This document shows positions 2,178 to 49,880 of a DNA stretch of 64,000 nucleotides, one piece after another. A program made the translations under genes and the position numbers. Source of the stretch: a phage. The notes beneath the pieces are model-generated. The model was not told the DNA's origin, did no database searches, and saw nothing but the letters and a program-made list of their open reading frames with translations. How positions within the stretch are numbered: position 1 is the first letter of the stretch; every line of letters starts with the position of its first letter. Location: the sequence record PZ402305.1; one strand, written 5' to 3'.

Positions 2178-3743
2178 GTGTCAACAGGAAAAAGAACGTA
2201 CACTAAAAAGTCAGAATACTGGGACAAAGGTGCTGCAAATAAAGCTGCTCTCTCTCCAACAAAAGAGGCAGAGAAAGAGAAAACGTTACTCCTGTCACCT
2301 GAAATAGGAACGATCGGATTAAACTCAATCAAAGCATTTACGAATTTCATGCAACCTTATGAGACTCGTTTCCCAGAATGTATTCGCACTTTTAAAGAGA
2401 TGGGTGAAGACCCTGATGTAGCTACTGCTCTTGACGCTACATATATCTTTGTAGATAGAGCATTCTTTGATTTCAAGATAAAATACAATGTAAACTCGGC
2501 AAAGTCAAGAAAAGCTGCTAAGTTTATTGATTACATGCTGCGCAATATGCAAGCCCCTCTACGTCAATATGTTAGATCACTTTTGACATATAAGCAATAT
2601 GGTTTTGCATTTGCAGAGAAAGTTTATGAGTTGGATGAAGATCCTAAAAGTCCTTACTTTGGGTATTGGCGATTAACCAAACTGGCTTTTAGACCACAAG
2701 ACACTCTTTACATGGCTCAACCTTTTACATATTCGGCAGACGGACGTTCTATTCTATCTGTTAACCAGAATATCACCAATACGATGTTAGCTCCAGGCAA
2801 TACAACTTTAGAAACTGGTATTAAAGAAATTCCTTTCAGTAAAGTTTTATTTGTTGGTAGCAACATTACAGAGAATAACCCACTAGGAGTTAGTCCGCTT
2901 TTAGCTGTATATCGTAGCTGGCGTGAAAAATCTCTTATTCAGGAATTTGAGGTTATTGGGGTATCTAAAGATTTAGGTGGTATGCCAGTTCTTAAGGTTC
3001 CAAGTGACATTCTAAACAGGGCATCTTTAGATCCTGCTGGGGATGAAGCACAATCTCTTCGAGTTCTCCAAGCCAACATCGCTAACCTGCACTCTGGTGA
3101 GCAAGCCTACATGGTATTGCCTTCAGACGTTTATGAAGGCACAGTGATGCGTCAATACGATCTTGTATTCCAAGGTGTTGATGGCACGGGTAAACAGTTT
3201 GACACTCAAGCACTAATCAAACAACGCAAACTGGACATTTATAACCGCTTTGGTGCGGGTGTGTTGATTATGGGTGATGGTGATGCAGGAAGTTTTGCGC
3301 TTTCTGACAACAAACAAACACTATTGTCTCATTTTATTGAGCGAGATGTAGATATTGTTGTAGAAGCTATAAACTCTCAACTGATCCCTCAAACACTACG
3401 ACTAAACAATATCTTCCTTTCTGATGAAGATATGCCTAAGTTTGTCAGTGGTGAAATGGGTGATCCTGATATTGAAGTAAATGCTAAAGCTATTCAGCAG
3501 TTGGTAGCCTCTGGTGCAATACCTTTAACCCCAGAAGTTATTAACGAGTTCCTTGAAAAAATTGGTTTTGAATATCGCATCCCTGACGATATTGTTGCCA
3601 ATAAAGAGAAATTCTTTGAATTCATGGATAACTATATGCCTGACAAAACTTCACGATCAGGAGATGGTTTAGCTACAGCGGGAACTGGAACATCTGACAC
3701 TGTTTCTGCTTTAGATCCTTCAGCACAAAACCTGTCGAATTAA
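2178..3743 (+). CDS. Portal protein (putative)
   Basis: 521-aa ORF immediately downstream of terminase; GTG start preceded by GGAGG RBS; size and position typical of portal. Confidence 0.65.
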   Translation: MSTGKRTYTKKSEYWDKGAANKAALSPTKEAEKEKTLLLSPEIGTIGLNSIKAFTNFMQPYETRFPECIRTFKEMGEDPDVATALDATYIFVDRAFFDFKIKYNVNSAKSRKAAKFIDYMLRNMQAPLRQYVRSLLTYKQYGFAFAEKVYELDEDPKSPYFGYWRLTKLAFRPQDTLYMAQPFTYSADGRSILSVNQNITNTMLAPGNTTLETGIKEIPFSKVLFVGSNITENNPLGVSPLLAVYRSWREKSLIQEFEVIGVSKDLGGMPVLKVPSDILNRASLDPAGDEAQSLRVLQANIANLHSGEQAYMVLPSDVYEGTVMRQYDLVFQGVDGTGKQFDTQALIKQRKLDIYNRFGAGVLIMGDGDAGSFALSDNKQTLLSHFIERDVDIVVEAINSQLIPQTLRLNNIFLSDEDMPKFVSGEMGDPDIEVNAKAIQQLVASGAIPLTPEVINEFLEKIGFEYRIPDDIVANKEKFFEFMDNYMPDKTSRSGDGLATAGTGTSDTVSALDPSAQNLSN

Positions 3744-4318: not shown

Positions 4319-5434
4319 GTGGCAAATACATATTTAACTAACGTAGACTTTTCTGGAAAAGCTACGGAAGAGTCACTAGGTGCTCATATTGCTTACACTT
4401 TTGATTTTCAAGGTGGAGCGGCATCTGGTTACAATACCCCCCTTTTATTTAAGTCAGACGGATCTCCAGACATAACTTTTGAAAAGTTAGAAGCTCTCAC
4501 TAAAATGGGAGAAGATGTTACAGAGTTACGTAAAAGCTATATTCAACAAGTGATGGATCGCATTTCTGAAAAAGTGCGTGAAAAATTTGAAGCTGGTTGG
4601 GATTGGGTTTACGTTATTGATGCTGACTTCGATGCGAACGTTGCAATTTTCTGTTCAGATAACGGTATGTTCTCTGTTGGCTTTAAAGTTGACGGACTGA
4701 ATGTTGAAGTTGAAGAGGTTGCTAAACCTGTTGTTCGTGTTACTGATTATCAAGTTGTTGATGGTGATGTAATGATCTCCATTGATTTCTTTGAGGACGT
4801 TTTAGACGATGCTTTGAGTAATCTCGTTAAGAGTTCCTTGAAACAAAGTCAAGTTAAAGATTATTTAGTGAAAGCTCACGCTAAAGCTAATACAAACTCT
4901 GTGGATGCAGAGGCTAACCCCGCAGGTGATAAATCTGCAAACACAACTGGAATCAATAAAGGAGAAACCCCTTTGGAAAATATCAACAAAGAAGAATTCC
5001 TGAAATCTGCTGAATTCCAAGAACTGATGAAAGCACAGATCGCTGAAGCTGTAGAAAAAGCAGCCGCAGATGCACGTGCAGCCGCAGAACTTGAAGCACA
5101 GGAAAAAATCGCTAAGGCAGAACAGGAAGCAGAAGAACTTCGTAAAGCTGAACAAGCTCGTATCGAAGAAGAATATACAACTGTTGTTAAATCCTATTCT
5201 TTCGTAGAAGAAGACAAAGTTGAAGCTCTCGTTAAATATCTGGTAGACAATAAAGATATCGCTGAAACTATCGTCAAAGCATTCGAAAAAGCACGTGCAG
5301 AAGTGGACGCAGTTAAGAAAGAATTTGGAACAGAACGTGGTGTTGACGTGATCAATACTCAACCTGTAGCTAAATCTTCTTCTGAACTGATTAGTCAGAA
5401 AGCTGCTGAACTTAAAAAAGCCCAGAAACAATAA
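4319..5434 (+). CDS. Scaffolding-like protein (putative)
   Basis: 371-aa acidic ORF with long Ala/Glu/Lys-rich coiled-coil-like C-terminal half (AEELRKAEQARIEEE); GTG start 2 nt after upstream stop; lies between portal and capsid genes. Confidence 0.5.
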   Translation: MANTYLTNVDFSGKATEESLGAHIAYTFDFQGGAASGYNTPLLFKSDGSPDITFEKLEALTKMGEDVTELRKSYIQQVMDRISEKVREKFEAGWDWVYVIDADFDANVAIFCSDNGMFSVGFKVDGLNVEVEEVAKPVVRVTDYQVVDGDVMISIDFFEDVLDDALSNLVKSSLKQSQVKDYLVKAHAKANTNSVDAEANPAGDKSANTTGINKGETPLENINKEEFLKSAEFQELMKAQIAEAVEKAAADARAAAELEAQEKIAKAEQEAEELRKAEQARIEEEYTTVVKSYSFVEEDKVEALVKYLVDNKDIAETIVKAFEKARAEVDAVKKEFGTERGVDVINTQPVAKSSSELISQKAAELKKAQKQ

Positions 5435-5873: not shown

Positions 5874-6875
5874 ATGCCAGCAGTAATTTTAGATCAGGTT
5901 GTAGATTTCAGCCCTATGATCGAACTTCAGGATTCCCCTGATACACTGATTGCCAGCCTGAATCTGTTCAGTGTTGACTATCATTCAACTACCGCTATTG
6001 AAATCGGTAAAGAAAAAGCTGAAGATGCTCTGATCTCCGCTCGTGAGCGTGGTGGTGAGCGTAACTTCCTGACCATGAAAAATCCAGAACTGAAAGCGTT
6101 CCGCATTCCGTTCTTCCCTCTGGATAAAAACATCAAAGCCCAAGATATTCAATCTTTCCGTAGCTTTGCAATGGCAGGAATCAATGACTCTCTGCGCACA
6201 GACGCTGAAGTTGTTAACCGCTATATGTCCCAGATTCTGCGTGACGTAGCAAAAACCAAAGAGAAAATCTTTGCAGAAGCAGTTATGGGTCGTGCCTATA
6301 ACGGCGTAGGTGGTGCAGCTAACTCTGCATACAACTGGTATACCGAATGGGGTGCTACCCAGAAATCTGTTGCTGTAGACTTTGCTTCTACCACTGTTTC
6401 TCCAGCAGCCACTATCGAACAAGAAGCTCGTGCTTACATCATCGATACTAAACAAGATGGCTCTACCGCTACCCGTATCGTAGCTCTGTGTTCTCGTGAG
6501 TTTTTCGCATCTCTGGTTAACTCTCCATTTGTTCGCCAGGCATATCAGTATTTCCAGGGAACTCCTAACCTTCTGCGTGACCGCCTTAGCGGTAACATGG
6601 ATGTTCAGGTGTTCGAATGGAACGGTGTAACTTACATTGAAGATATCCACGGTAACATCCCTGCTGGTGAAGCATATGTTCTGCCTATGGGTATCGAAGG
6701 TATGTTCCAGGCGCACTACGCTCCTGCGGATACTCCAGAACTGGCTAACACCCAGGCTCGTGAACTGTATACCTTCATGATCAGCCAGCACCGCACTATT
6801 CAGCTTCAGTCTGAATTCTCGCTGCTCGCAGTTAACACCCGTCCAGAACTGGTAGTTAAACTGACTACGGCTTAA
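5874..6875 (+). CDS. Major capsid protein (lambda gpE-like)
   Basis: 333-aa ORF; C-terminal ...NTQAR... segment resembles lambda gpE family; strong RBS; followed by a strong intrinsic terminator. Confidence 0.7.
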   Translation: MPAVILDQVVDFSPMIELQDSPDTLIASLNLFSVDYHSTTAIEIGKEKAEDALISARERGGERNFLTMKNPELKAFRIPFFPLDKNIKAQDIQSFRSFAMAGINDSLRTDAEVVNRYMSQILRDVAKTKEKIFAEAVMGRAYNGVGGAANSAYNWYTEWGATQKSVAVDFASTTVSPAATIEQEARAYIIDTKQDGSTATRIVALCSREFFASLVNSPFVRQAYQYFQGTPNLLRDRLSGNMDVQVFEWNGVTYIEDIHGNIPAGEAYVLPMGIEGMFQAHYAPADTPELANTQARELYTFMISQHRTIQLQSEFSLLAVNTRPELVVKLTTA

Positions 6876-6895
6876 TAGAACTCTGTTAATATTAG

Positions 6896-6929
6896 AGGCT
6901 CGTCCGTGATGGGCGAGCCTTTTCTGTTT
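6896..6929 (+). terminator. Rho-independent terminator after major capsid gene
   Basis: 10-bp GC-rich stem (aggctcgtcc / gggcgagcct), 5-nt loop, then tttctgttt. Confidence 0.7.
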
Positions 6930-6959
6930 ACAATAAGAGTTTACAATGAGGAGATTGAT

Positions 6960-7304
6960 ATGTCAAACCCAGAATTGAAACGTTACTTTAGTTATCACGA
7001 AATGATTCGTGATTTCGAATCGCTTTCACCACTGATTGATGCTGATAAAACATTAGTATCTGCGCCACCAATGTCTTTCTATCTGAAAGATGGTCGTATT
7101 GCATTAGGTGGAAACTTCATTCACTTCCTCACACGTTTGAGAGAAGAAACAGGTATTCTTGTGCATCCTTTTGCAAGTGAAGAACACATGGGTTACTATC
7201 TTGTAAGTTACGAAGACTATTCGCCTGTAAAAATCAAAGAAGAAGTTTTAAAAGTAGAAGTGGTAGACACTCCAGCTAAAAAACGTTCCCTTCGTAAAAA
7301 ATAA
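6960..7304 (+). CDS. Hypothetical head-tail joining protein (start revised to ATG 6960)
   Basis: Track ORF 6906..7304 starts inside the terminator stem; in-frame ATG at 6960 has a GAGGAG RBS. Confidence 0.55.
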   Translation: MSNPELKRYFSYHEMIRDFESLSPLIDADKTLVSAPPMSFYLKDGRIALGGNFIHFLTRLREETGILVHPFASEEHMGYYLVSYEDYSPVKIKEEVLKVEVVDTPAKKRSLRKK

Positions 7305-38113: not shown

Positions 38114-38120
38114 TAAAAAA

Positions 38121-38149
38121 GGGAACCCGCAAAGGTTCCCTTTTCTTTT
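38121..38149. terminator. Bidirectional rho-independent terminator at the convergence of the two arms
   Basis: gggaacc-cgcaaa-ggttccc stem-loop flanked by an A-run (38114-38120) and T-run (38141-38149), between convergent stop codons at 38113 and 38177. Confidence 0.75.
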
Positions 38150-38176: not shown

Positions 38177-39064
38177 TCAGAATGGAATATCATCGTCGAA
38201 GTCCATTGGAGGTTCTTCTTGATTACTTGGAGTTGGTTCTGGTTGTGGTTCAGGTTTCTTAACTTCTTTCTTCTCTTCTTTCTTAGGCTGTTCTGCGGAA
38301 CCACGAATGGCAGCAGCAACTTTATCAGACAGAGCCAGAACTTTACGAGCAGAATCAATCAGATCTTCTACAGAGACAGTCTTAATGGTATGGTCTTTAC
38401 AAGCATTGAGAATAGCGTGACCAACAGATGCCCCAAGATCATAATCATTAATATCAACGCCACGAGATTCAGCAATTTCAGATTTCAGCGTGACAGTTGC
38501 AGATTGAACAACCCCAGCGATATCGAAAGCATCGCCTTTAACACCATTACGAATCAGTTCCAGTGCACCATTTACTGCGTGACCAGTTTCCAGACCTACA
38601 GTATCACGTTTTTTATAGGACTGCTTAGGAGCAGCATCGTTGGAACCTTTATTGCCAGAAGATTTGTTAGACTTCTGAACACCATCGGTAGACAATACTG
38701 TAATACGAGATTTTTTAGTATTGTAGTAAGTTTTACCGCCTTTATTGTCAACGCGATCAATATCAATACTTACTTCTACACCTTTTTCAATAGTGATCCA
38801 ATTATCACCTTCTTTGACTTGCAGGTTTTCATAACCTTCTTTCAGTTCAATGTCACCAAGAGAAATCCAAACACCTTTCTCATCTGGTTTAGCACCTTTC
38901 TCTTTCAGAACAAGAGAAGCTCGGTGAGTTGAAACAATCGTTTTTCCTTCCCAATGGAAAGTTTTAGGTTCAGCGAATTTATCCAGTTTAACGTAGTCTA
39001 CGATACCAGTTGCATAAGTTACGGTTTTGCCTTTACGATCAGTTTCAGTATTAATTACGGACAT
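38177..39064 (-). CDS. ssb: Single-stranded DNA-binding protein with acidic C-terminal tail
   Basis: 295-aa ORF; Pro/Glu/Lys-rich linker and C-terminal ...MDFDDDIPF, the hallmark acidic tail of bacterial-type SSBs. Confidence 0.65.
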   Translation of the reverse strand: MSVINTETDRKGKTVTYATGIVDYVKLDKFAEPKTFHWEGKTIVSTHRASLVLKEKGAKPDEKGVWISLGDIELKEGYENLQVKEGDNWITIEKGVEVSIDIDRVDNKGGKTYYNTKKSRITVLSTDGVQKSNKSSGNKGSNDAAPKQSYKKRDTVGLETGHAVNGALELIRNGVKGDAFDIAGVVQSATVTLKSEIAESRGVDINDYDLGASVGHAILNACKDHTIKTVSVEDLIDSARKVLALSDKVAAAIRGSAEQPKKEEKKEVKKPEPQPEPTPSNQEEPPMDFDDDIPF

Positions 39065-39080
39065 TATTATCTCCTCTACA

Positions 39081-39473
39081 TTACATTAATTTTGCACAGA
39101 AAGAGCGGAGTCTTTCCATATCATCTTGCTCTAACAGGTATTTACCTTTACCTATTCCAACTCCAATTTCACCATTAGGAAAATGAACTATTTGCACTGG
39201 GAAACCTCCGAGTTTAATTGTGGCAGCTTTGCCTTCTTCGTCTATAACGTTTCGGATTGTATCTTGTAGTGAAATGAATTCTTTGTTTGTAACAGTGGTT
39301 TCAATTATTTCAGATGTTTCGACACGAGCAGTTAGCTTCTTGTTTCCACCTTGAATAACCAAAATTTGAAAATAAAAAGAGTTGTCAAGACCTACAACAT
39401 TTTTCTCAACTAGTGTCAAACTGGTATAGTTTCCATAAACAGTTTCAACAGCTATCTTAGAACGTTCAGTCAT
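39081..39473 (-). CDS. Hypothetical protein
   Basis: 130-aa ORF with AGGA RBS. Confidence 0.55.
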   Translation of the reverse strand: MTERSKIAVETVYGNYTSLTLVEKNVVGLDNSFYFQILVIQGGNKKLTARVETSEIIETTVTNKEFISLQDTIRNVIDEEGKAATIKLGGFPVQIVHFPNGEIGVGIGKGKYLLEQDDMERLRSFCAKLM

Positions 39474-39518
39474 TGAATGCTATCCTATCATAAAATGTTT
39501 AATATTGTCAAGCTTTAA

Positions 39519-40112
39519 TTACCAAGGAATATCATCTTCTTCCAATCTGGTATCTACTTGAGGTGGACGTGGAACCTTAACCTCTTTCACAAAACGAAGA
39601 TATGGGAAACGTGTAGCAATTTTAATAACATGTTTGGCATCTTCTCTAACATCTTTGTGCAAGAAGCAGATCCCTGTTTCCAAGGTTGTTTCAAAATCTT
39701 TAGAATAATAACAGTCCTTCCCATCAAATGCAGCCTGGCAGATGGACAGATCGAACTCATTTAGAAAGGTTGTCATTACGCTTGGTTCCATAATCATAAG
39801 GTTGCAAAGCTGACCATCACGTTCAAACTCAAAAACGTGTTTAAGACCAGTAACACCTTCATAATTGTCAGAAGCCTCTTTGTTTCCTAGTTTACGAATA
39901 TTGGTTCCCATTAAAGCAGATGCAATTAATCCTTGTATTTGTTCTTCAGTCCGATGTGCAGGAAGGGATGTATAGAAATCCAGATCACGTCCAGCAATAT
40001 CAAGAATACGCCAATCACGAACAGCACCGCCAGCCAAGACAGAATTAGGATCAGCGATCTTTAGTATGGTAAGAATTTCTTTGGCAATATTGATTTGTTT
40101 TGATTTAGTCAT
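39519..40112 (-). CDS. Pol-beta-superfamily nucleotidyltransferase (CCA-adding/poly(A) polymerase head-domain-like, putative)
   Basis: 197-aa ORF containing GGAVRDWRILDIAGRDLDF, matching the GG-x-VRD ... D-x-D signature of tRNA nucleotidyltransferase head domains. Confidence 0.4.
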   Translation of the reverse strand: MTKSKQINIAKEILTILKIADPNSVLAGGAVRDWRILDIAGRDLDFYTSLPAHRTEEQIQGLIASALMGTNIRKLGNKEASDNYEGVTGLKHVFEFERDGQLCNLMIMEPSVMTTFLNEFDLSICQAAFDGKDCYYSKDFETTLETGICFLHKDVREDAKHVIKIATRFPYLRFVKEVKVPRPPQVDTRLEEDDIPW

Positions 40113-40323
40113 TGATACGCTCCACAGTTACTTTTACAACATCGTCCATATTAATCTCATCCCCCAAGACCTCAATAACACCTTCCTCATAAAGTCGAGC
40201 GCATTCTTCCCACACTTCAGCTTCCGTCATTCCACCTGCAATCTTATTTGCAAGACCTTTAATAACATCTTCATTTTGTTCATCAACAAGAATTGAAACA
40301 TTAAAGCTCACTAATTTACGCAT
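40105..40323 (-). CDS. Hypothetical small protein
   Basis: 72-aa acidic ORF with AAGGAG RBS. Confidence 0.5.
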   Translation of the reverse strand: MRKLVSFNVSILVDEQNEDVIKGLANKIAGGMTEAEVWEECARLYEEGVIEVLGDEINMDDVVKVTVERIND

Positions 40324-40333
40324 TGTTTTCTCC

Positions 40334-40501
40334 TTATACTTCTAAACGGAAAGTTTCTTTAGATACAAAATCGTATCCACCTTTTTCAAGCCAGTCATTG
40401 TAAACCTCATCGGCTTGAGACTCTATCATAAAATACCGAGTGGTAACTTCGTCTCCGACAATACGCACAATTTTATAGCAAATCATGATACCATTTCCCA
40501 T
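40334..40501 (-). CDS. Hypothetical small protein (55 aa; shorter than the ORF track's 60-aa cut-off)
   Basis: ATG overlaps upstream stop (TAATG) and is preceded by a GGAGGAAG RBS; fills an otherwise empty gap. Confidence 0.4.
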   Translation of the reverse strand: MGNGIMICYKIVRIVGDEVTTRYFMIESQADEVYNDWLEKGGYDFVSKETFRLEV

Positions 40502-40797
40502 TAATCTTCCTCCAGATCAATTTCATTATAACAATGTATGCAGAAACCATCATTGTGCATATGTTGTTCATAAGACATATCTTTACCACAAGACCAACAA
40601 CGGATATCCCCATCGTCCCATTCACGTTCTTCTTCACCTTCAAATTCATCTGGTAGGTAAGGCATACCAAGACAATCTAAATCGTAACTCATATCTTCTC
40701 CTATAAAGGGGCAGAAGCCCCTTATAAAACAATACGTTAGATCAGTGACAACTGGCCCAGGAATTCCCCACATCATATCCAGCAGTAAGCTGAACAT
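40501..40797 (-). CDS. Small zinc-ribbon protein
   Basis: 98-aa ORF with CWSCGKD ... CIHCYN Cys pairs. Confidence 0.5.
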   Translation of the reverse strand: MFSLLLDMMWGIPGPVVTDLTYCFIRGFCPFIGEDMSYDLDCLGMPYLPDEFEGEEEREWDDGDIRCWSCGKDMSYEQHMHNDGFCIHCYNEIDLEED

Positions 40798-43339
40798 TAA
40801 GATTGTAAAATTCTCCAGCCTTAGTAACAGCTAAGGCAGCAAGTTCACCTGCCCGACTATAGGCTGTAAACCATCCACCTTTGGGAGATTCATGAATGTT
40901 AGCCCAAATTTGTCCCGTCTCTTTTTCCTTATTATGCTTCCATTCTTCAACTTTAGCAAGGCATTCTTTATCAATTTTCTTTTGTTCTTCAGGATCGTCT
41001 ACTTTCTTCCAACCTAATGATTCAGGTGAAAACCATTTAAATTCTACAAGGTTACGAGAAACTTCAAGCTGGGCTTCATCGTGATATGCAATCATTTGTT
41101 GCACGAAGTCTTTATTCTTCCAGTCATCTTTAAAGAAGTCAACACTTAGTCCTTCTTCTTCGATCATGTCGTCATAAATAACCATTGCACGTTTAGCACA
41201 GATAACCCCACCACTTTGGAACAGAGAGTTAAGAATCGCGTGAGCAGAACGAGTAGGAACCTTACGACCGTCAATACCCAAAACATATTGTTTACCAGTC
41301 TTAACCCAGAAATCGTTTAAACGTTCTTTAAGACGCGCCAATGGGAATGCAGCTTCCCAGAAAGCATCAAACACTAATTGACCTGTAAACTTATCGCTAC
41401 CAATTGTTTTAGCAACCTTGTCGGCTTGTGCACCATAGGTAATACCATACTTAACAGCTTTAGCAGGACTACGTTCAAATTTACGTCCAATAGTTTCAGT
41501 GATACGTTTTGCCATCATTGTGTGAACATCGTTAGGTTTCTCTAACAACAGAGCGTTACAATATTCGTGTGGCTCCGGCTCGTACCGCCAACAGTAGTGT
41601 GATTCAATTTTTGCTTCCAAAGAGTCGAAGTCGTAGCCGATCTGGAAGTATTTAGGAACCTCTACACCAAACAAGTTACGCATCTCCCATCCAAACAAAG
41701 ATGTGACACGAGGAATATTAGCTACAGATCTATGCTTCATACGAGAGGTTGCAGCATCACATGTAGCGGCTGGGGTAGGAATACGCCCATCCGCCCTTAC
41801 TGCGGCTAAGAAACCTTTATCGTATTCTTGATCTTCTTCATCTTCTTCCCAATCAGCACCGCCACCTAAAATAGAGTTCCTACGATGCTTATACGTTAAG
41901 TATTCTACAATCTGTGTAGCATAAGGAAACTTCTCACCCAAAGCTTGCAGGTTAGGACAAATTTCTTTTTCCTGACCTTTGGTAAAACATGGGTTAGTCA
42001 ATACTTTAAGACCGCGACCTTTACCTTTTGCTATACGCTCTTGAATCTTCCTTTCCAGGGTTTCCGGTGTGCACTCCAGATGATCACAACGATCCTGACA
42101 AAAATTAGAAGATAGAGTTTGCTCAACGTAAGCTCGAATACCTTTCTGAAGTTCTTCCTCGCTCTTTTTAATCTTGGTGCCAGATTTAAGAGTCAAGTCT
42201 TTATCTTTATATTCAGACGGTACCCAACCTAATCCTACAAGCCAGTTTTTAATATGGGTTGTATCGTTCAATGTTGCAGGAATGTTAGGATCACATAGAG
42301 GTTCATCTGCTGCAACTGGCAGTTTCCACTCTTTCCCCAACATAACTAACCACCAATCGCCATCCCTCTCTTCCAAATGACCATCATGTTTCTTAGCAAA
42401 ATTGATCATATGGTTAGTTGGCTCTAAGTTCTTTTTAATTTGCAACTTAGGTGGAATAAAAGCCTTAAGATAACCTTTTGTTGCTGGTTTAGGTGGCAAA
42501 ATAGGCTCAACGAGTAAACGAAGACGCTCCATTTCTGCATCCAAAAAAGCAAGGTTCTCTTCTGCTTGTTTCATGTTAAAAGCAAACCCACGGTGCTCCT
42601 GGCGTGTAATAATGTCTGCTACACGTTGTTCAAGTTCAAATGGACCTTCCCATTTATCATAATCACCCCATTCTTCCATAAGGTAATTATATACGCTCGT
42701 ATTGGCTTTGTTGTCATAGATACAGTAATAAAGCATATCAGCAGCAAAAGTCTTAAATCGATCTTCTTCTGGAATCTCTTTACGGAAATCTATTTTTACA
42801 TCACCACCTGCCTTTCGAGAAAGTGCTGCCAAACTATGTCCTGATTTGCCCTCAATCTTTCGATCTGGGTTTAACACTTTACTCAAAATCAAGGAGTCAA
42901 TAAGTTTTACCTTATTTTTGCCCCACGTATTATATTTAACACTGTAATCTAATCCATAAAACAGTTTTGTAGCCAACCAGTCGTAGTTGATACCGTTGTG
43001 AGCCACAGCCATTTCAACCAGATATTCAGGCTTGTCTTTAAAATAACCTTCATGATTAATAAAATCTGGGAAATCTTTTAGTTGAAAATGTGTGTAATCT
43101 TGCGCCACATACTCTTTAAGAACATATGTGTATTTACCATCTGACTCTTCATAAGGACGCCCATCAAAGATGTATTTAGGGCCATCGTGGAAAGCTACTA
43201 TTTCTCCTGTTTCATGGTTCTCTAAGACAATACAGTGCATTTGAAATGTGTCTTTGAGACGATAAGGACTAGCTAAATAATCAATAGTGTCATTATTCAA
43301 CAATCCGTTTGCTTCAATATCCCATGTAAACTTACTCAC
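40742..43339 (-). CDS. DNA polymerase, family A (T7-like, with 3'-5' exonuclease domain)
   Basis: 865-aa ORF; exo motif DIEANGL near N-terminus; polymerase motif A (GYDFDSLEAKIE), motif B (RSPAKAVKYGITYG) and motif C (YHDEAQLE). Confidence 0.85.
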   Translation of the reverse strand: MSKFTWDIEANGLLNNDTIDYLASPYRLKDTFQMHCIVLENHETGEIVAFHDGPKYIFDGRPYEESDGKYTYVLKEYVAQDYTHFQLKDFPDFINHEGYFKDKPEYLVEMAVAHNGINYDWLATKLFYGLDYSVKYNTWGKNKVKLIDSLILSKVLNPDRKIEGKSGHSLAALSRKAGGDVKIDFRKEIPEEDRFKTFAADMLYYCIYDNKANTSVYNYLMEEWGDYDKWEGPFELEQRVADIITRQEHRGFAFNMKQAEENLAFLDAEMERLRLLVEPILPPKPATKGYLKAFIPPKLQIKKNLEPTNHMINFAKKHDGHLEERDGDWWLVMLGKEWKLPVAADEPLCDPNIPATLNDTTHIKNWLVGLGWVPSEYKDKDLTLKSGTKIKKSEEELQKGIRAYVEQTLSSNFCQDRCDHLECTPETLERKIQERIAKGKGRGLKVLTNPCFTKGQEKEICPNLQALGEKFPYATQIVEYLTYKHRRNSILGGGADWEEDEEDQEYDKGFLAAVRADGRIPTPAATCDAATSRMKHRSVANIPRVTSLFGWEMRNLFGVEVPKYFQIGYDFDSLEAKIESHYCWRYEPEPHEYCNALLLEKPNDVHTMMAKRITETIGRKFERSPAKAVKYGITYGAQADKVAKTIGSDKFTGQLVFDAFWEAAFPLARLKERLNDFWVKTGKQYVLGIDGRKVPTRSAHAILNSLFQSGGVICAKRAMVIYDDMIEEEGLSVDFFKDDWKNKDFVQQMIAYHDEAQLEVSRNLVEFKWFSPESLGWKKVDDPEEQKKIDKECLAKVEEWKHNKEKETGQIWANIHESPKGGWFTAYSRAGELAALAVTKAGEFYNLNVQLTAGYDVGNSWASCH

Positions 43340-44133
43340 TATTCCTCCTTTCTAATGTTCTCCAGAACCCACTGAAGTTCTTTTAAACTTAAACTTCTTA
43401 CTCCCGCAGTTTTACTAGCTTCAGCTTTAAGTAACGGGTAAGCCTCAATGATACGTGTTTTAAGATCAGAAGTCAAGGCTTTTAAAAAGTAGGTAGAGGC
43501 TTCAGATAAAGAATCCTCTTCTGATAACACTTTACCTGCACTTGCTCCCGCTCTCCTAACGGCTATGTCGTAGTCTTTACTGTTGCCTAATACGAATAGT
43601 CGATTTTCTCCTAAAACAACGGGAGAACGCTTCTCGTTGCGTTTAATCCATATCTGGAATACACAAGGAACATCCCAAGGTTCTCCATGAAGAATAAAAG
43701 ATCCTTTTGGACATTCTTCTTCGTAAAGAAGATGCATGTGGGGATTTAGTTTGTGTGCAAAAAAGATTTTTTGAAATGTGCGAGGCAAGATAAAACAAAT
43801 ACCACCTTCGTTATCCAGCATTTCAGCACAATGGTTAAAGAATTTAATGGCAAGACTAGCATTTTTTCCAAACGGAGGATTACCGACAAAAGCAGTTACA
43901 CTGCCAACAGACTCAACAGATTGAGCTAAAAAATCTGCCTCAATACAATCTTCAAACTTAGGGTCAATATCAAAAGAAGTTATGTTTTTAAAACAAGAAG
44001 AGAAAGCTCCTTCTCCCGCAGATGGTTCTACGTAGTTAGCTTCCTCTCCAAAAATTTCTTTGATCTTATCACATAAGAACCCCGCATAAGCGGGGTTAGT
44101 GTAATATTGATCAAGTGTGTTCAACTTGCTCAA
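43339..44133 (-). CDS. DNA N6-adenine methyltransferase (gamma-class amino-MTase, putative)
   Basis: 264-aa ORF with DQYYTNP (Q-Y/F-F/Y-T-P-like motif X), EPSAGEGAF (AdoMet motif I) and NPPFG (motif IV). Confidence 0.6.
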   Translation of the reverse strand: MSKLNTLDQYYTNPAYAGFLCDKIKEIFGEEANYVEPSAGEGAFSSCFKNITSFDIDPKFEDCIEADFLAQSVESVGSVTAFVGNPPFGKNASLAIKFFNHCAEMLDNEGGICFILPRTFQKIFFAHKLNPHMHLLYEEECPKGSFILHGEPWDVPCVFQIWIKRNEKRSPVVLGENRLFVLGNSKDYDIAVRRAGASAGKVLSEEDSLSEASTYFLKALTSDLKTRIIEAYPLLKAEASKTAGVRSLSLKELQWVLENIRKEE

Positions 44134-44640: not shown

Positions 44641-44668
44641 TATTTTTAATAAAAGGGCCGAAGCCCTT
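44641..44668 (-). terminator. Rho-independent terminator after primase-helicase gene
   Basis: Minus-strand aagggc-uucg-gcccuu stem-loop followed by UUUUAUU; overlaps the stop codon. Confidence 0.6.
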
Positions 44669-46445
44669 AATAGTTGCTATCCGTAGGCAAATTAGCAGGA
44701 TTGTTGAAATACTGCTCTTTGTCATGCAGAGTTGCAGTTCTAATGTCATAGTAAAACTGCCCTGCCGGACCAGTTTCCGAGAACTCACGGTTTTTTAGGA
44801 TAAAGCAATGAGTCGTATTGCGTTCTACAGGGTCTTCAGCGGCTTTATCTCGTTCCAAAGCCAAGGTAATACCAGCACCTTTAGCCAAGAAACTACTACC
44901 CATTGCATCGTCCTCTGTTAAGTGTTCATTGCCACCATTAGCCGACTTCTTAACGTGTGAGATGACGATAATGGTTATAGCATACTCTTTCATGATGCGC
45001 TTCAACCATGTTGCTAACTCTTCCTGGGCTTGAACATCCATACCAGAAAGCAAATCAGAATAAGGGTCGATAACAAGAATTGTTACTCCAAAATAGATGA
45101 TCATCTCCAAAACTTTTTCTTTGATAGACTCCACATCTGCTCCACGATCATCACACACATAAAAACGTGGTGATCCATCTTCTCTTTCGTAAAAATCTAG
45201 GATTTTTTCTTTATTCTCTTCCAAGATTTGAAATTTCTCTTCCGGTGTTTTCCTGTGTAGAGGAATATGCAGGAACGAGGACAACAGGTTACGAGAATAT
45301 TTCTTATAAGTTGCTTCCAAGGACAGAATACCTAGGGTATGTTCTGGGTGTGCAACAATAATATGTTTGGTGATCTCATTCACCATCAAAGTTTTACCGA
45401 TACTGGTCTTTGCCAGGATGACTGTAATCTCTTCCTCTACTAAACCACCACCCAGCATATTTGCAGCAACACGCATAAAAGGAGGCAAGGTAATCATCTT
45501 GGATTCCAAGCATTCTAATGCAGCTTCATACAAGACATTAGAAGCATAAACACCTGCTGGGGTGTATAGACGAGCACTCCAAAAAGCTTTTACGAAATCT
45601 TTTGCACGACCTTCTTCCAGATACTGATTGGCATCCTTAAGATCCATCTGCATACGGTAGACTTTGTTACGAGGCAGCACCTTAACAATATTTTCAAATG
45701 CCTCATTACCTGCTTTGTCATTATCCATGCAAACAATAATCTTCTTAAATTTTTCAAAGAAAGGATATTGTGCCTGAACTTGTTTATACATACTGGTTTC
45801 ACCAGTTGTGCCACTAACTACTGCTGGAAGTTCATATTTGTTGTCCAAGTTTTCAGACAGCATTTGATAAGCTGCCAGAGCATCGTGTTCACCACCTGTA
45901 ATTACCACAGTATGAGAACGGTCTGCAAAACGAATTTGTCCAAAAAGATCTACATCTTTACCTACTTGACCAATAGGTTTGCTGAAATCTTTAGGATGAA
46001 TACGACGCTTAAAACCAACCAACTCTTTACCGATAGTAGTTGGATATAAACAACTTTCTACTACCATCTGATCCCCTTCCTGACGGTATTCATAACGAAC
46101 ACCATAGAAAGATGAAACTTTTTCTTTAATGCCTCGATAACCACGTGGGTTGGTTGATGTTTCTTGAACAATTTTACGATGAATCTGTTTATTAAATTCC
46201 GAACCCACAATCTCCTCCTCTTCTTCTAAAACTTCACCATTTTCTCGTAACCATTCTACGCTAGGAATAGTGTATTCACACGCAAAGCACTTAGCACCCT
46301 TATGCTCTCCATTAGAATCTAATCCATAAACCATCAGGTTATTACGAGAGCGATCCTTGCCATTTTTCATGCAGCGCGGACAACCTGTATGCCCTTCCTT
46401 GCTAAGATCAACATCAAATCCATATTTAGTTATAATGTGCGACAC
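44667..46445 (-). CDS. Bifunctional DNA primase-helicase (T7 gp4-like)
   Basis: 592-aa ORF; N-terminal zinc ribbon (CPRC ... CFAC), TOPRIM-like acidic motifs (GGEHD, CMDNDKAG), C-terminal DnaB-type Walker A (AKTSIGKT) and Walker B (ILVIDP). Confidence 0.85.
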   Translation of the reverse strand: MSHIITKYGFDVDLSKEGHTGCPRCMKNGKDRSRNNLMVYGLDSNGEHKGAKCFACEYTIPSVEWLRENGEVLEEEEEIVGSEFNKQIHRKIVQETSTNPRGYRGIKEKVSSFYGVRYEYRQEGDQMVVESCLYPTTIGKELVGFKRRIHPKDFSKPIGQVGKDVDLFGQIRFADRSHTVVITGGEHDALAAYQMLSENLDNKYELPAVVSGTTGETSMYKQVQAQYPFFEKFKKIIVCMDNDKAGNEAFENIVKVLPRNKVYRMQMDLKDANQYLEEGRAKDFVKAFWSARLYTPAGVYASNVLYEAALECLESKMITLPPFMRVAANMLGGGLVEEEITVILAKTSIGKTLMVNEITKHIIVAHPEHTLGILSLEATYKKYSRNLLSSFLHIPLHRKTPEEKFQILEENKEKILDFYEREDGSPRFYVCDDRGADVESIKEKVLEMIIYFGVTILVIDPYSDLLSGMDVQAQEELATWLKRIMKEYAITIIVISHVKKSANGGNEHLTEDDAMGSSFLAKGAGITLALERDKAAEDPVERNTTHCFILKNREFSETGPAGQFYYDIRTATLHDKEQYFNNPANLPTDSNY

Positions 46446-46457
46446 TTTGTTCTCCTG

Positions 46458-46736
46458 TTAAAATGGTTCGTTAGTCTCCATCATATATTCTGCTTCTAGT
46501 TCTTCCATGTGCTTTCTAAATTGGAAAGCAATTTCTGCTACAGTTACATTTAAATCTTTTTCAAAAACTTCTGTAGAGCCTTCATAAAAACGAATACCGT
46601 CAATTAAAAGCCCTCCGTGGTAATCCCAATCACTTTCACGAGAAAGCGGGTTAGGCTCTTCATAATAGTAATCCACCTCCACGACTAAGGCTTTCCCGTT
46701 ACGAGTGGTGTATTCAAAATCAAAAGTGTTAATCAT
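46458..46736 (-). CDS. Hypothetical protein
   Basis: 92-aa acidic ORF between helicase and glycosyltransferase genes. Confidence 0.5.
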   Translation of the reverse strand: MINTFDFEYTTRNGKALVVEVDYYYEEPNPLSRESDWDYHGGLLIDGIRFYEGSTEVFEKDLNVTVAEIAFQFRKHMEELEAEYMMETNEPF

Positions 46737-47680
46737 TATAGCTCCTCAAATAAAAGTCTACGACGCTCATTCAACACATCAATGTGATAATGAGTCCTGA
46801 CATACTTAGCTAATGCTAATCCTTTCTCCATGCAAACATCGGGAGCACTTAATAAGTATTCCGTAATATCTTTCCACTCGGAAGGTGTTTCAGCAAAGAA
46901 TAACAAATCTTTAAACTCTTGTGTATGATAATTCTCACGAGGAGAACAGATCAAAGGTAAACCCTTAGCACCTGCCTCAAGAATTTTAAGATTGCTTTTT
47001 GCATTATTAAACACGTTATCAAGCAATGGCGCAAGACTGATTTGATGACCATCGTAAGATTCCATGTAGTTGGCATATGGTCTTACACCTTCATAAACAC
47101 AAGTTGGTGCTACATTTTCTCTGATCACAGACCATTCACGACTACTTAAAACTTCAGAATCCCTACGAAAACCACATATTGTAAGATCTTTACCAAAATC
47201 GGGCAAGATAGCCAAATCTTGTTTATGTGTTTCACTTCCAGCCCAGACTAATGGAGTTTTGGAGTAGCGATCACGGGTCAACACAAATTGACCTTCATCG
47301 TAAGGAAGACCATTAGGGATTATGTGCACATTATCATTGTATTGTGAAAGTTCAACTTGCAAAGCAGGTGTCGTAGTTGTAACAAGATCGCTGTGCTCTA
47401 AAAACCATTTTAAATGTTCACGAATACCTGATTCAAAAATACCTTCTAACATGTGTCCTTTTGGAATAACTAAAGAGTCATCCAAATCCATAACCATTTT
47501 AAAGCCTAGGTTTTTAAGGGCTAAAAAGCCCTCTTTACCTTTTGTTGGCACTCCGTTAAAAACGAAAACGTTGTGTTTAGGTTGTGAAGAGAACTGCCTT
47601 GAGTAAGGCAGCACTACCCTATGGAAATCGCAGACACTATAATTGATTCCGTTACGATTGTCAAGAATTATTTGTCCCAT
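46736..47680 (-). CDS. Glycosyltransferase, GT-B-fold-like (paralog 2 of tandem pair)
   Basis: 314-aa ORF; paralogous to 47688..48635 (shared FNNAKSNLKILEAGAKGLP, VRTHY); the KILEAGAKG-P-hh motif resembles GT4-type donor-binding region. Confidence 0.45.
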   Translation of the reverse strand: MGQIILDNRNGINYSVCDFHRVVLPYSRQFSSQPKHNVFVFNGVPTKGKEGFLALKNLGFKMVMDLDDSLVIPKGHMLEGIFESGIREHLKWFLEHSDLVTTTTPALQVELSQYNDNVHIIPNGLPYDEGQFVLTRDRYSKTPLVWAGSETHKQDLAILPDFGKDLTICGFRRDSEVLSSREWSVIRENVAPTCVYEGVRPYANYMESYDGHQISLAPLLDNVFNNAKSNLKILEAGAKGLPLICSPRENYHTQEFKDLLFFAETPSEWKDITEYLLSAPDVCMEKGLALAKYVRTHYHIDVLNERRRLLFEEL

Positions 47681-47687
47681 ACTTCAC

Positions 47688-48635
47688 CTACAAACTTTCA
47701 ATAACCTGGCGTCGCAACTCGTTTGCATCTGCCAGATTATAATGTGTTCGAACATGTTCAGCCAAGAACAAGCCACGATCTTCCCGATAGTTTGGATTGC
47801 GAAGAAGCTTAACAATTTCGTAATGCCATTCTGCTTTATTCTCTGCGTAAGCAACAGCGCGAGCATCTACAGGGTTAAAATAAGGTAATACCTTAGAACA
47901 AACAATTGGAATACCTTTTGCTCCAGCTTCCAGGATTTTGAGATTACTTTTACAATTATTAAAATCATTATCTACCAAAGGAGCTATAGCAATAGCATGA
48001 CTTTCGTAAACACTCATGTAATTATCTAAATCTTTTACAGCGGCTTTATATTTGGCATTTGGTAAATTTCTGCGAATCTTAATCCACTCTTGTCCCGTGA
48101 TGCTTTGTGATGCTTCATATCCCGCAATAGTAAGAAGTTCATCATCGAAAGTATTAGAGACTAGTCGTAAGTCTGGTTCGTGACTAGCACCGCCAGCCCA
48201 TACAACAGGGGTACCGGATGAACGATCATTTGACAAAGTGAATTGTCCGCTATCAAAAGGAAGTGCATTTCGGATCACAACAACATTCCTATTTAAGTGA
48301 CGGATCTTATATGCCAAATATTCCGTAGTCACAATAACCACATCAGCAAGCTTAACCATAGCTACAATAGCATGAGTGTTTGACTCGTATAGACTTGCTA
48401 AATAATGTTCTGGATTAAGTTGGTAAAAATCATCTAAGTCTACAACAACCTTAACACCTTGACGTTTCAAAGATAAAACGTATTCTGCACCTTTAGAGTG
48501 GATACGGTTAAACACAACAACATCTTTCTTAGGTTGAATATTATTGTTGTTAAATGGTATAACAATACGATGATAGTCACAACCGCTGTGAGGTTTTGCA
48601 TCAATTTTTAGTTTAGACCATTTTTTATTTGACAT
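47688..48635 (-). CDS. Glycosyltransferase, GT-B-fold-like (paralog 1 of tandem pair)
   Basis: 315-aa ORF; clear collinear similarity to 46736..47680. Confidence 0.45.
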   Translation of the reverse strand: MSNKKWSKLKIDAKPHSGCDYHRIVIPFNNNNIQPKKDVVVFNRIHSKGAEYVLSLKRQGVKVVVDLDDFYQLNPEHYLASLYESNTHAIVAMVKLADVVIVTTEYLAYKIRHLNRNVVVIRNALPFDSGQFTLSNDRSSGTPVVWAGGASHEPDLRLVSNTFDDELLTIAGYEASQSITGQEWIKIRRNLPNAKYKAAVKDLDNYMSVYESHAIAIAPLVDNDFNNCKSNLKILEAGAKGIPIVCSKVLPYFNPVDARAVAYAENKAEWHYEIVKLLRNPNYREDRGLFLAEHVRTHYNLADANELRRQVIESL

Positions 48636-49308
48636 GTGCTAGTGCCTCCTCATAGGAAATTCGGATTTTCCCATTTTTAATATCCTCTAAAGATGCTTTA
48701 TATTCTTCCCAGTTAATCCCAATAGCAGCCTCTTTCTCTTCTTTTGTCAGGTTAGCAAAAGGCATAGGATTGTTTCCAAAAACATCGTCTGGGTGGATAT
48801 AAGCCATGATACGAAGTGGACAAGGTGTTGCCTGAATACCATGATTCAAACCAGCAGCTTGCAAACGGTGTCCCCATTCAGCATCTTCAAAACCATAACC
48901 GTGAGTGTAAGGACGGAAATAACCCATCTTCTCAACAACGGCACGAGAATACATTGCAAATTGACACATTGCAAGTTCCCAGAGAATAACTTCTCCTTTG
49001 CTTCCAACAACTTTATCTTTGAAATACTCCGGCATACCAAAGAAATCCCATCCTCCAGAGACAGCTTGATCTACAAAGTATGTTTCCCATCCCTCCATGA
49101 CTGGGTAGCAATCATCGTCAAAAATAAACCAATAATCATAACCTTCTTCATAAAACTGGTGCATAAGTTCATTCCTGGCATAAGCTACACCTTTACGATC
49201 TGGATCGTTGAATACTCGAAAATCTGCACGTGGATCTGTTACAAGGTAGTCTTTAAGTGGACGGACACCTACAGTGATAACACCCACTCCGATTTTAATA
49301 TTTTCCAT
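48625..49308 (-). CDS. Glycosyltransferase, GT-A fold (family-2-like)
   Basis: 227-aa ORF with N-terminal GVGVITVGVRP, acidic DxD-type motif YWFIFDDDCYP, and GYGFEDAEWGHRL resembling the GT2 signature. Confidence 0.55.
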   Translation of the reverse strand: MENIKIGVGVITVGVRPLKDYLVTDPRADFRVFNDPDRKGVAYARNELMHQFYEEGYDYWFIFDDDCYPVMEGWETYFVDQAVSGGWDFFGMPEYFKDKVVGSKGEVILWELAMCQFAMYSRAVVEKMGYFRPYTHGYGFEDAEWGHRLQAAGLNHGIQATPCPLRIMAYIHPDDVFGNNPMPFANLTKEEKEAAIGINWEEYKASLEDIKNGKIRISYEEALAHVK

Positions 49309-49316
49309 TTTCTCTC

Positions 49317-49880
49317 CTAAATAGTTTTACTGTGATCATGACAGTGTAATAAATGATGTATAGACCGTTGAGGATTTGTTTGACCTAATCTGTAAATGTG
49401 AAACAGATACATTCCCCGCATCAATCCTAACCTCTTTCCTTTTTCATGTAAAGTGCGAGAGAAAATTAAGTCGAATTGGATAGATTTTTCTTCGAAAGGA
49501 ATTTCATTCCACAATGATTTTCTAAAAAGCAAAAAGAAACCTGCCAGAGGTGTTCCGAAAGGAACTTCTTCAACACTTACTTTATGATATTCTCTTGCAA
49601 TCTTAGCATATTCTATATGGTTTAGAATATCGGGATCATCGTTAATTTGGTTAGAGAAAAGCTGATAACCACTACCTAACCTGTTACAAGTTGCACCTAT
49701 TACATCAAAAGGCGGGTTTGACATAACAAGCTCTTCAAGCATAGAGGGTTGATCAGGTAGGAGGAACATTGTATCGGTATCTCTTAAACACACCCAACTA
49801 TCATCTGGAAGAACGGCAATGGCTTCATTGATAGCCTTGCCGATATTTCCTGTCAGATAGGGAGTAATATAATAAATCAT
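49317..49880 (-). CDS. Glycosyltransferase-like protein (GT-A-like, putative)
   Basis: 187-aa ORF with LRDTDTMF (DxD-like) motif; adjacent to three other glycosyltransferase-like genes. Confidence 0.35.
   Translation of the reverse strand: MIYYITPYLTGNIGKAINEAIAVLPDDSWVCLRDTDTMFLLPDQPSMLEELVMSNPPFDVIGATCNRLGSGYQLFSNQINDDPDILNHIEYAKIAREYHKVSVEEVPFGTPLAGFFLLFRKSLWNEIPFEEKSIQFDLIFSRTLHEKGKRLGLMRGMYLFHIYRLGQTNPQRSIHHLLHCHDHSKTI

Follow-up and report, generated by a model that had tools for sequence, protein, structure and literature searches.

The locus considered here raises the question of whether a small phage protein that carries the signature motif of tRNA nucleotidyltransferases is likely to act on tRNA and, if not, which role its sequence and genomic surroundings suggest. 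The gene (39519..40112; positions refer to the window, that is, the entire 64-kb stretch of phage DNA that was analyzed, unless a locus sequence or an accession is named) lies on the minus strand, a correction to the original prediction. It is a complete open reading frame (ORF), from ATG to stop, for a 197-aa mini nucleotidyltransferase (hereinafter NTase; PHROG 10174) that consists of a head domain and the first neck helices. A ribosome-binding site, GGAG (40120..40123, minus strand), can be read from the sequence 7 nt 5′ of the ATG, and the ATG itself (40110..40112) falls inside the final codons of an upstream 72-aa ORF (40105..40323), an overlap that suggests translational coupling of the NTase to this ORF. 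The GGAVRD...DLD motif from which the original prediction started belongs to motif A (residues 28-45, GGAVRDWRILDIAGRDLD; 39978..40031, minus strand; conservation assessed over 146 family members). Across all six reading frames of the 64 kb there is a single match to GG..RD-x(6-14)-D.D, and 200 shuffles gave none; this motif is therefore real and not a chance occurrence.

The motif has been noticed before. The region is 97.7-99.5% identical to genomes of Phapecoctavirus (phAPEC8-like E. coli myophages of the subfamily Stephanstirmvirinae), and the NTase is 100% identical to a phAPEC8 product that has since 2012 been listed in GenBank as “putative tRNA nucleotidyl transferase/poly(A) polymerase”; other GenBank records name the same protein “nucleotidyltransferase”. 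The latter label is also attached to both PHROGs that match the NTase, PHROG 10174 (E 7.9e-63, residues 1-128) and PHROG 1614 (E 1.8e-11, residues 4-184), and some relatives are labelled PF26128.2. Thus, the observation made in the original prediction repeats a database annotation and, the gene and its label having been public since 2012, the finding as first noted is not new. Small genes of T7-like phages have been given the same call in genome papers, without an assay (PMC7693777, PMC9145550, PMC8541194), and the literature on phAPEC8, Stephanstirmvirinae, Autographiviridae nucleotidyltransferases, phage CCA repair and PF26128 yielded annotation statements only, assays not being found. What was not found in the searchable literature is the absence of the third carboxylate and the lack of conservation of motifs B and D across the family, the link to modules of polymerase A and primase/helicase across very distant phages, and the tail type common to the NTase and the nearby SSB-like protein, all of which are described below. 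The issue extends beyond a single locus: in thousands of phage genomes, small genes are called “tRNA nucleotidyltransferase” on the motif alone, and for the phAPEC8-type family this label goes well beyond the evidence. In one GenBank record (MZ553931.1, 10305..10895), a phiKMV-type mini nucleotidyltransferase is labelled “putative ppGpp synthetase”, which shows that the annotation of small phage NTase-like proteins is unsettled.

Retained and lost elements of the class II nucleotidyltransferase head

The Pfam profile PF01743 (PolyA_pol) matches the NTase with 13.9 bits (E 0.07), below the gathering threshold of 23, and the match spans profile positions 3-41 of 126 alone. A profile built from 48 family sequences matched CCA-adding enzymes in the PDB (E 1.4e-3), and a profile-profile comparison of the family with aligned class II enzymes (Cca and PcnB of E. 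coli, plus the PDB sequences 1MIV, 1VFG and 6IBP) yielded a probability of 85-90% (E 2e-6 to 6e-6), with residues 28-45 aligned to class II motif A at a probability of 85-90%. As judged from these comparisons, the N-terminal helix and motif A account for all of the sequence support for the class II link. The three-dimensional fold of the class II head domain is matched by the NTase, the model of which is structured up to about residue 178 and followed by a disordered tail. Among 146 family members that share less than 60% identity with each other, G28, G29, D43 and D45 are 100% conserved, and A30, R32 (97%), W34, Y84 and K164 (97%) are each kept in more than 96%. [quoted passage not shown]

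The invariant elements of the class II alignment are GGxVRD, DxD, a Glu in an ExxxxR strand, RRD-T-N (motif B), and EDxxR followed by RxxRF (motifs D/E). The third catalytic carboxylate of class II enzymes is Glu79 in the enzyme of B. stearothermophilus. One column of a joint alignment holds the Glu of class II enzymes, the Asp found in five mini-NTases from Autographiviridae and the Asn or Gln of the present family, and the family HMM independently aligns “..VDLLLY” of LKD16 on “..vqiivm”; this assignment of the third carboxylate derives from the multiple alignment and the register of a hairpin, not from coordinates. Gln (121 sequences) and Asn (19) together occupy the column in 140 of the 146 family members (96%), and Asp is found in three; the NTase itself has Asn104, the last residue of the β-hairpin formed by residues 95-104 (39801..39830, minus strand). 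Of the catalytic carboxylate triad, the lack of which the original prediction regarded as evidence against its own assignment, the DxD pair is therefore intact, whereas the third position is occupied by an amide, both here and in nearly the whole family.

The absence of the third carboxylate questions nucleotide transfer itself. Position 95 (Glu95 in the NTase) carries an acidic residue in 66% of the family and, with Glu95 located four residues before the hairpin turn and Asn104 four residues after it, the two should face each other across the hairpin, such that Glu95, on the neighboring strand, might substitute for the missing carboxylate. The three family members with Asp at position 104 have no acid at positions 95 or 97, and in 34 of the 146 sequences (about 23%) an amide at 104 is likewise accompanied by no acid at either position.

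Motif B of class II enzymes, RRD(F)T(I)N, is responsible for recognition of the ribose 2′-OH, and motif D, EDxxR, is the protein template that selects CTP and ATP. The motif B region of the NTase reads EFDLSICQ: both Arg are missing, the Asn is replaced by Cys or Ser in the family, and only about 21% of the members retain the motif B Asp. The motif D/E region corresponds, in a low-confidence alignment, to E157-D158-A-K-H...K164...R168-F169, where E157 and D158 are not conserved in the family; K164 and F169 are conserved and, together with P170, belong to a neck-like helix (residues 160-170, KHVIKIATRFP; 39603..39635, minus strand). Nothing is present beyond the first neck helices: the tRNA/RNA-binding body and tail domains are absent, and a Pfam search of the NTase gave no match to the RNA-binding domain PF12627. 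The unconserved motifs, along with the absent body and tail, indicate that the NTase is a stripped-down, divergent class II offshoot and not a short CCA-adding enzyme. The NTase retains the NTP/metal site but is devoid of the third carboxylate and of the tRNA-binding elements, and the elements of specificity are not conserved.

These losses raise the alternative that the protein is a catalytically dead or weak nucleotide binder, a scaffold that would act by protein contacts, for example as a decoy or adaptor for SSB tails in the replisome. The Gln or Asn at the third-carboxylate position in 96% of the family, the 23% of the members that have no compensating acid nearby, and the lack of conserved ribose- and base-selecting motifs all point in this direction. 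However, the invariance of G28, G29, D43 and D45 and the retention of R32 in 97% of 146 diverse sequences are the usual mark of retained metal-NTP chemistry, whereas a pseudo-enzyme with this fold has in most cases lost the DxD; the C-terminal tail, discussed below, bears on this alternative from both sides.

Compared with the class II enzymes (PF01743; the CCA-adding enzyme of B. stearothermophilus, 1MIV; E. coli PcnB, 3AQL; the A-adding enzyme of A. aeolicus, 1VFG), the NTase is half as long. The class II enzymes possess the body and tail, the Glu, RRD and EDxxR, whereas the NTase lacks the body and tail, has Asn/Gln in the family in place of the Glu, and does not conserve RRD or EDxxR; unlike the class II enzymes, the NTase family appears to be confined to phages. 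In size, the NTase resembles the small nucleotidyltransferases of Autographiviridae (phiKMV gp16, LKD16 ORF16, Pectobacterium PP2_018 and PP47 gp28, and the gh-1 nucleotidyltransferase), which span 170-250 aa. These proteins adopt the same fold as the NTase (E 1e-6 to 1e-5 in a BFVD comparison) and, in phiKMV, LKD16, PP2, gh-1 and fHe-Yen3-01, are encoded between helicase/primase, ligase and DNA polymerase A. They have been annotated by homology only, biochemistry not being found (PMC7693777). Their sequence relation to the NTase family profile is weak (17.5 bits), they have Asp in the third-carboxylate column and FDxxxNQ in motif B, as opposed to Asn/Gln and FxxSxC in the phAPEC8-type proteins, and they lack the DDIPW tail of the NTase. 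The Autographiviridae mini-NTases are best regarded as a sister group and not as part of the same family as the phAPEC8-type proteins. A bacterial counterpart in size is the 191-aa protein NP_344798.1 of S. pneumoniae (PDB 2LA3), a stand-alone “CCA-adding enzyme head domain”; a profile search detected no sequence relationship between this protein and the NTase family.

Phage distribution and replication-gene neighborhood

An exhaustive profile search retrieved 1045 cluster representatives of the family at E <=1e-3, of which 334 remained at E <=1e-10. The members are almost all stand-alone proteins of 170-230 aa; fusions gave no functional clue, the extensions of about 10 longer members having either no Pfam match or only a match to PHROG 17589. 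A scan of one genome per species over 185,579 prokaryotic species yielded 3 loci, all on metagenome-assembled contigs, so that the family appears to be confined to (virulent) phages. Among cultured phages, it is represented in Stephanstirmvirinae, Zobellviridae, other Vibrio phages and ICP1. The ICP1 homolog (ORF223; 4956..5375 of the locus sequence) is truncated to about 137-139 aa and comprises the head only; it is encoded in a block of small ORFs near a DNA ligase and does not adjoin the polymerase.

In the window, the NTase gene belongs to a run of minus-strand genes in the order primase/helicase, an ORF, Dam-type methylase, polymerase A, three small ORFs, NTase, a 130-aa protein, SSB-like protein and a likely terminator. 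The run includes a T7 gp4-type primase/helicase (592 aa, 44667..46445, minus strand) and, upstream of the NTase, a family A DNA polymerase (865 aa, 40742..43339, minus strand). The placement of the gene next to SSB in the original prediction holds only in part: an SSB-like gene is close by, and the gene for the 130-aa protein (PHROG 16560; 39081..39473, minus strand) lies in between. In phAPEC8- and phi92-like phages, the 130-aa gene is always located between the NTase and SSB-like genes; its product, which has no match in Pfam, PDB or PADLOC, may be a functional partner of the NTase. In the phi92-like phages, in which the NTase is 37% identical, the polymerase gene is still followed by those for the NTase, the 130-aa protein and the SSB-like protein, in this order, and in a 47-kb Vibrio zobellvirid the NTase follows primase/helicase, polymerase and a 5′-3′ exonuclease.

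The same association recurs across the family. Genes were called in 80 loci on viral contigs, reduced to 47 with distinct NTases. A family A DNA polymerase is encoded within six genes of the NTase in 23 of the 47 loci, with a second polymerase cluster contributing another 4, and a T7 gp4-type primase/helicase in 22; HNH endonucleases (9 loci) and a 5′-3′ exonuclease (8 loci) are the next most frequent neighbors within the same distance. RNA ligase, polynucleotide kinase and other RNA-repair genes are not recurrent among the neighbors in these 47 loci.

Several further features of this run of genes can be mentioned. Two tiny conserved ORFs (40334..40501 and 40105..40323) are located by the NTase gene, and a Cys-rich ORF (40501..40797, minus strand, with a conserved core at about 40501..40692; PHROG 25582), which contains ..CWSCGKD...HNDGFCIHC.. 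and looks like a zinc-ribbon protein, lies between the polymerase and the NTase. The polymerase gene directly borders that for the Dam-type N6-adenine methyltransferase (43339..44133), and four consecutive genes annotated as glycosyltransferases (46736..49880, minus strand; annotation of OR062524) adjoin the primase/helicase in the replication run; the glycosyltransferases and the methylase may be tied to modification of DNA or of surface sugars. A strong 11-bp GC-rich hairpin flanked by A and T runs (38117..38144), situated between a convergent tail gene on the plus strand and the SSB-like gene on the minus strand, is likely a bidirectional terminator at which the replication operon ends. In the 45-nt gap after the NTase stop codon, a sigma-70-like promoter match (TTGACA-18-TAGGAT with TG; 39482..39511, minus strand) is only a hint that the pair of genes for the 130-aa and SSB-like proteins has a promoter of its own, and promoter-like matches near the NTase are no more frequent than in shuffles.

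The original prediction held that the NTase might repair tRNA 3′ ends after nuclease attack. Such an enzyme would re-add C, C or A to tRNAs that had been trimmed or blocked by defense systems or nucleases, or else would mature phage tRNAs. Small size alone is no bar to a tRNA substrate: MenT/AbiEii are small toxins of the Pol-β fold that act on tRNA 3′ ends although they possess no additional domain for RNA binding (PMC11541572). Against this reading stand the absence of the body and tail domains, the lack of conservation of motif D (EDxxR, the template for C and then A) and motif B (RRD), the replacement of the third carboxylate, and the identity of the conserved partners, which are DNA replication genes and not RNA ligase, kinase-phosphatase or tRNA genes. 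The window contains no tRNA genes; the 11 tRNA genes of phAPEC8, located just to the left of the window (NC_020079, 59143..61148), all encode the 3′ CCA (11/11), so that no CCA synthesis is needed for their maturation; Vibrio phage 1.235.O (47 kb) carries an NTase homolog and 0 tRNA genes; and the host, E. coli, supplies a full-length Cca of its own. On the strength of the encoded CCA, the window free of tRNA genes and the homolog in a tRNA-less Vibrio phage, a function of the NTase in phage tRNA maturation was rejected, and tRNA repair in general is one possibility among several, improbable and not the best supported.

Tailing of RNA, the other activity originally suggested, would resemble that of poly(A) polymerase and would tag RNA primers, or transcripts of host or phage origin, so that they are degraded or stabilized. 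It is still harder to defend, given that the motif losses are the same as those that count against CCA addition, that no RNA-binding domain is present, and that no link to RNA-degradation genes emerged in the 47 loci. The anti-defense function that the original prediction saw in either activity is unsupported, the PADLOC models giving no match at E up to 1 for the NTase and three family members. The same null result speaks against a small-molecule or signaling nucleotidyltransferase that would make or consume a nucleotide signal, or nucleotidylate a metabolite or protein, to counter host defense. With such folds scoring well below the class II enzymes, a motif A of class II type, and supporting gene context not found, this reading is very improbable.

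The SSB-type tail and a proposed role at the replisome

The NTase ends in ...LEEDDIPW, a disordered acidic tail (EEDDIPW-COOH; 39522..39542, minus strand; pLDDT <50 for residues 189-197) that resembles the C-terminal tail of SSB. The window contains, over its six frames, 219 ORFs with a length of 50 aa or more, of which only 2 end in an acidic run plus [IVLM]P[FWY], the NTase and the SSB-like protein encoded two genes downstream (295 aa, annotated as SSB; 38177..39064, minus strand). The last 12 residues of the latter, EPPMDFDDDIPF, match the C-terminus of E. coli SSB (DDDIPF) residue for residue, and the rest of the protein (PHROG 4477) has no sequence match in Pfam or PDB; it looks as if the SSB-like protein, with a putative OB fold, copies the docking tail of the host SSB. 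Many proteins of replication and repair dock on the tail of SSB, and the acidic, Phe-terminated tails of T7 gp2.5 and gp4 bind the T7 polymerase; in the T7 group, the gp2.5-type SSB of gh-1 ends in ...EDEDSNQYGSGDF. The NTase shares the disordered acidic end with E. coli SSB (...MDFDDDIPF) and with T7 gp2.5 and gp4, and with SSB also the I-P-aromatic ending. Unlike in these proteins, the tail is borne by an enzyme-like protein, not by an SSB or a helicase, and it ends in Trp rather than Phe, such that its docking role is putative. By this analogy, the tail suggests that in the phAPEC8-like clade the NTase could be recruited to the sites at which SSB tails dock.

The tail is a property of that clade and not of the family. 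The DDIPW ending is kept in 10 of 10 relatives, down to 58% identity, and is missing from the phi92-like homologs, which end in ...LDSFNNEEFKI. In the wider family, an acidic tail with an aromatic last residue is found in 12% of the members vs 5% of the neighboring proteins, those in the latter group being mostly SSB-like proteins and primase/helicases. Because DDIPW is confined to the phAPEC8-like clade and the tail type is seen in only 12% of the family, the tail cannot explain the core function of the family. As regards the catalytically dead or weak nucleotide binder, the match of the tail to an established protein-docking signal favors a role through protein contacts, but the presence of this tail in one clade only does not; taken together with the conservation of the active-site residues, this makes such a scaffold unlikely.

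The NTase gene thus forms part of a T7-type replication module, and its product bears an SSB-type tail in the phAPEC8-like clade. The reading that we prefer, with a probability of roughly 0.45, is that the NTase binds a nucleotide and works at the phage replisome or close to it, where it would most likely transfer a nucleotide to a nucleic-acid 3′ end, with a specificity unlike that of CCA-adding enzymes. Under this scheme, the NTase would bind an NTP or dNTP with Mg2+ via motif A; the SSB-type tail would bring it to the readers of SSB tails, either the phage polymerase and replisome or host SSB-binding proteins; and there, where phage DNA is being replicated, it would transfer a nucleotide to the 3′ end of a nucleic acid or to some other acceptor, and would not restore the CCA ends of tRNA. 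Its specificity would differ from that of a CCA-adding enzyme, and catalysis would perhaps be slow, or dependent on Glu95 or on a partner. The location in the replication module could also reflect mere co-expression with early and middle genes, and the ICP1 homolog, truncated and apart from the polymerase, likewise counts against this scheme.

A more specific and bolder version of the replisome reading is that the NTase is a new replisome accessory factor, a two-carboxylate mini-NTase with a tail copied from SSB, which docks on the phage polymerase or host SSB-binding proteins and either modifies the 3′ ends of DNA or primers at the fork or senses or gates the nucleotide supply. We regard this version as speculative and improbable; if it were true, neither the T7 nor the T4 model of replication would include a comparable activity, and the variation among phages could reflect counter-measures to defenses that watch replication proteins. 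Should the NTase prove to be a replisome-associated enzyme in the broader sense, the T7-type phage replication machinery would gain one more component; should it prove inactive or dispensable, the annotation would have to drop to “nucleotidyltransferase-fold protein”. As a soluble protein of 197 aa for which clear point mutants and a tail deletion can be designed, it is a defined and cheaply testable target.

Two additional observations concern tails of this kind in other phages. In Vibrio zobellvirids, a protein of about 230 aa encoded next to the polymerase (PHROG 862; one at 2759..3457 of the locus sequence) ends in ..DDGEDIPW, ..DGDDVPW or ..EGEDTPW, the same Trp-terminated tail type as in the NTase. 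This protein was considered as a candidate T7 gp2.5-type SSB on account of its EDIPW end, but the two have no detectable similarity, which leaves such a link speculative. In the phi92-like Escherichia phage muut, the SSB-like ORF (6026..6973 of the locus sequence) runs 19 residues past DFDDDIPF (..DDDIPFAPIGLQYGRNFLHCF), an extension that would bury the docking tail and may either be genuine or stem from an error in sequencing or annotation.
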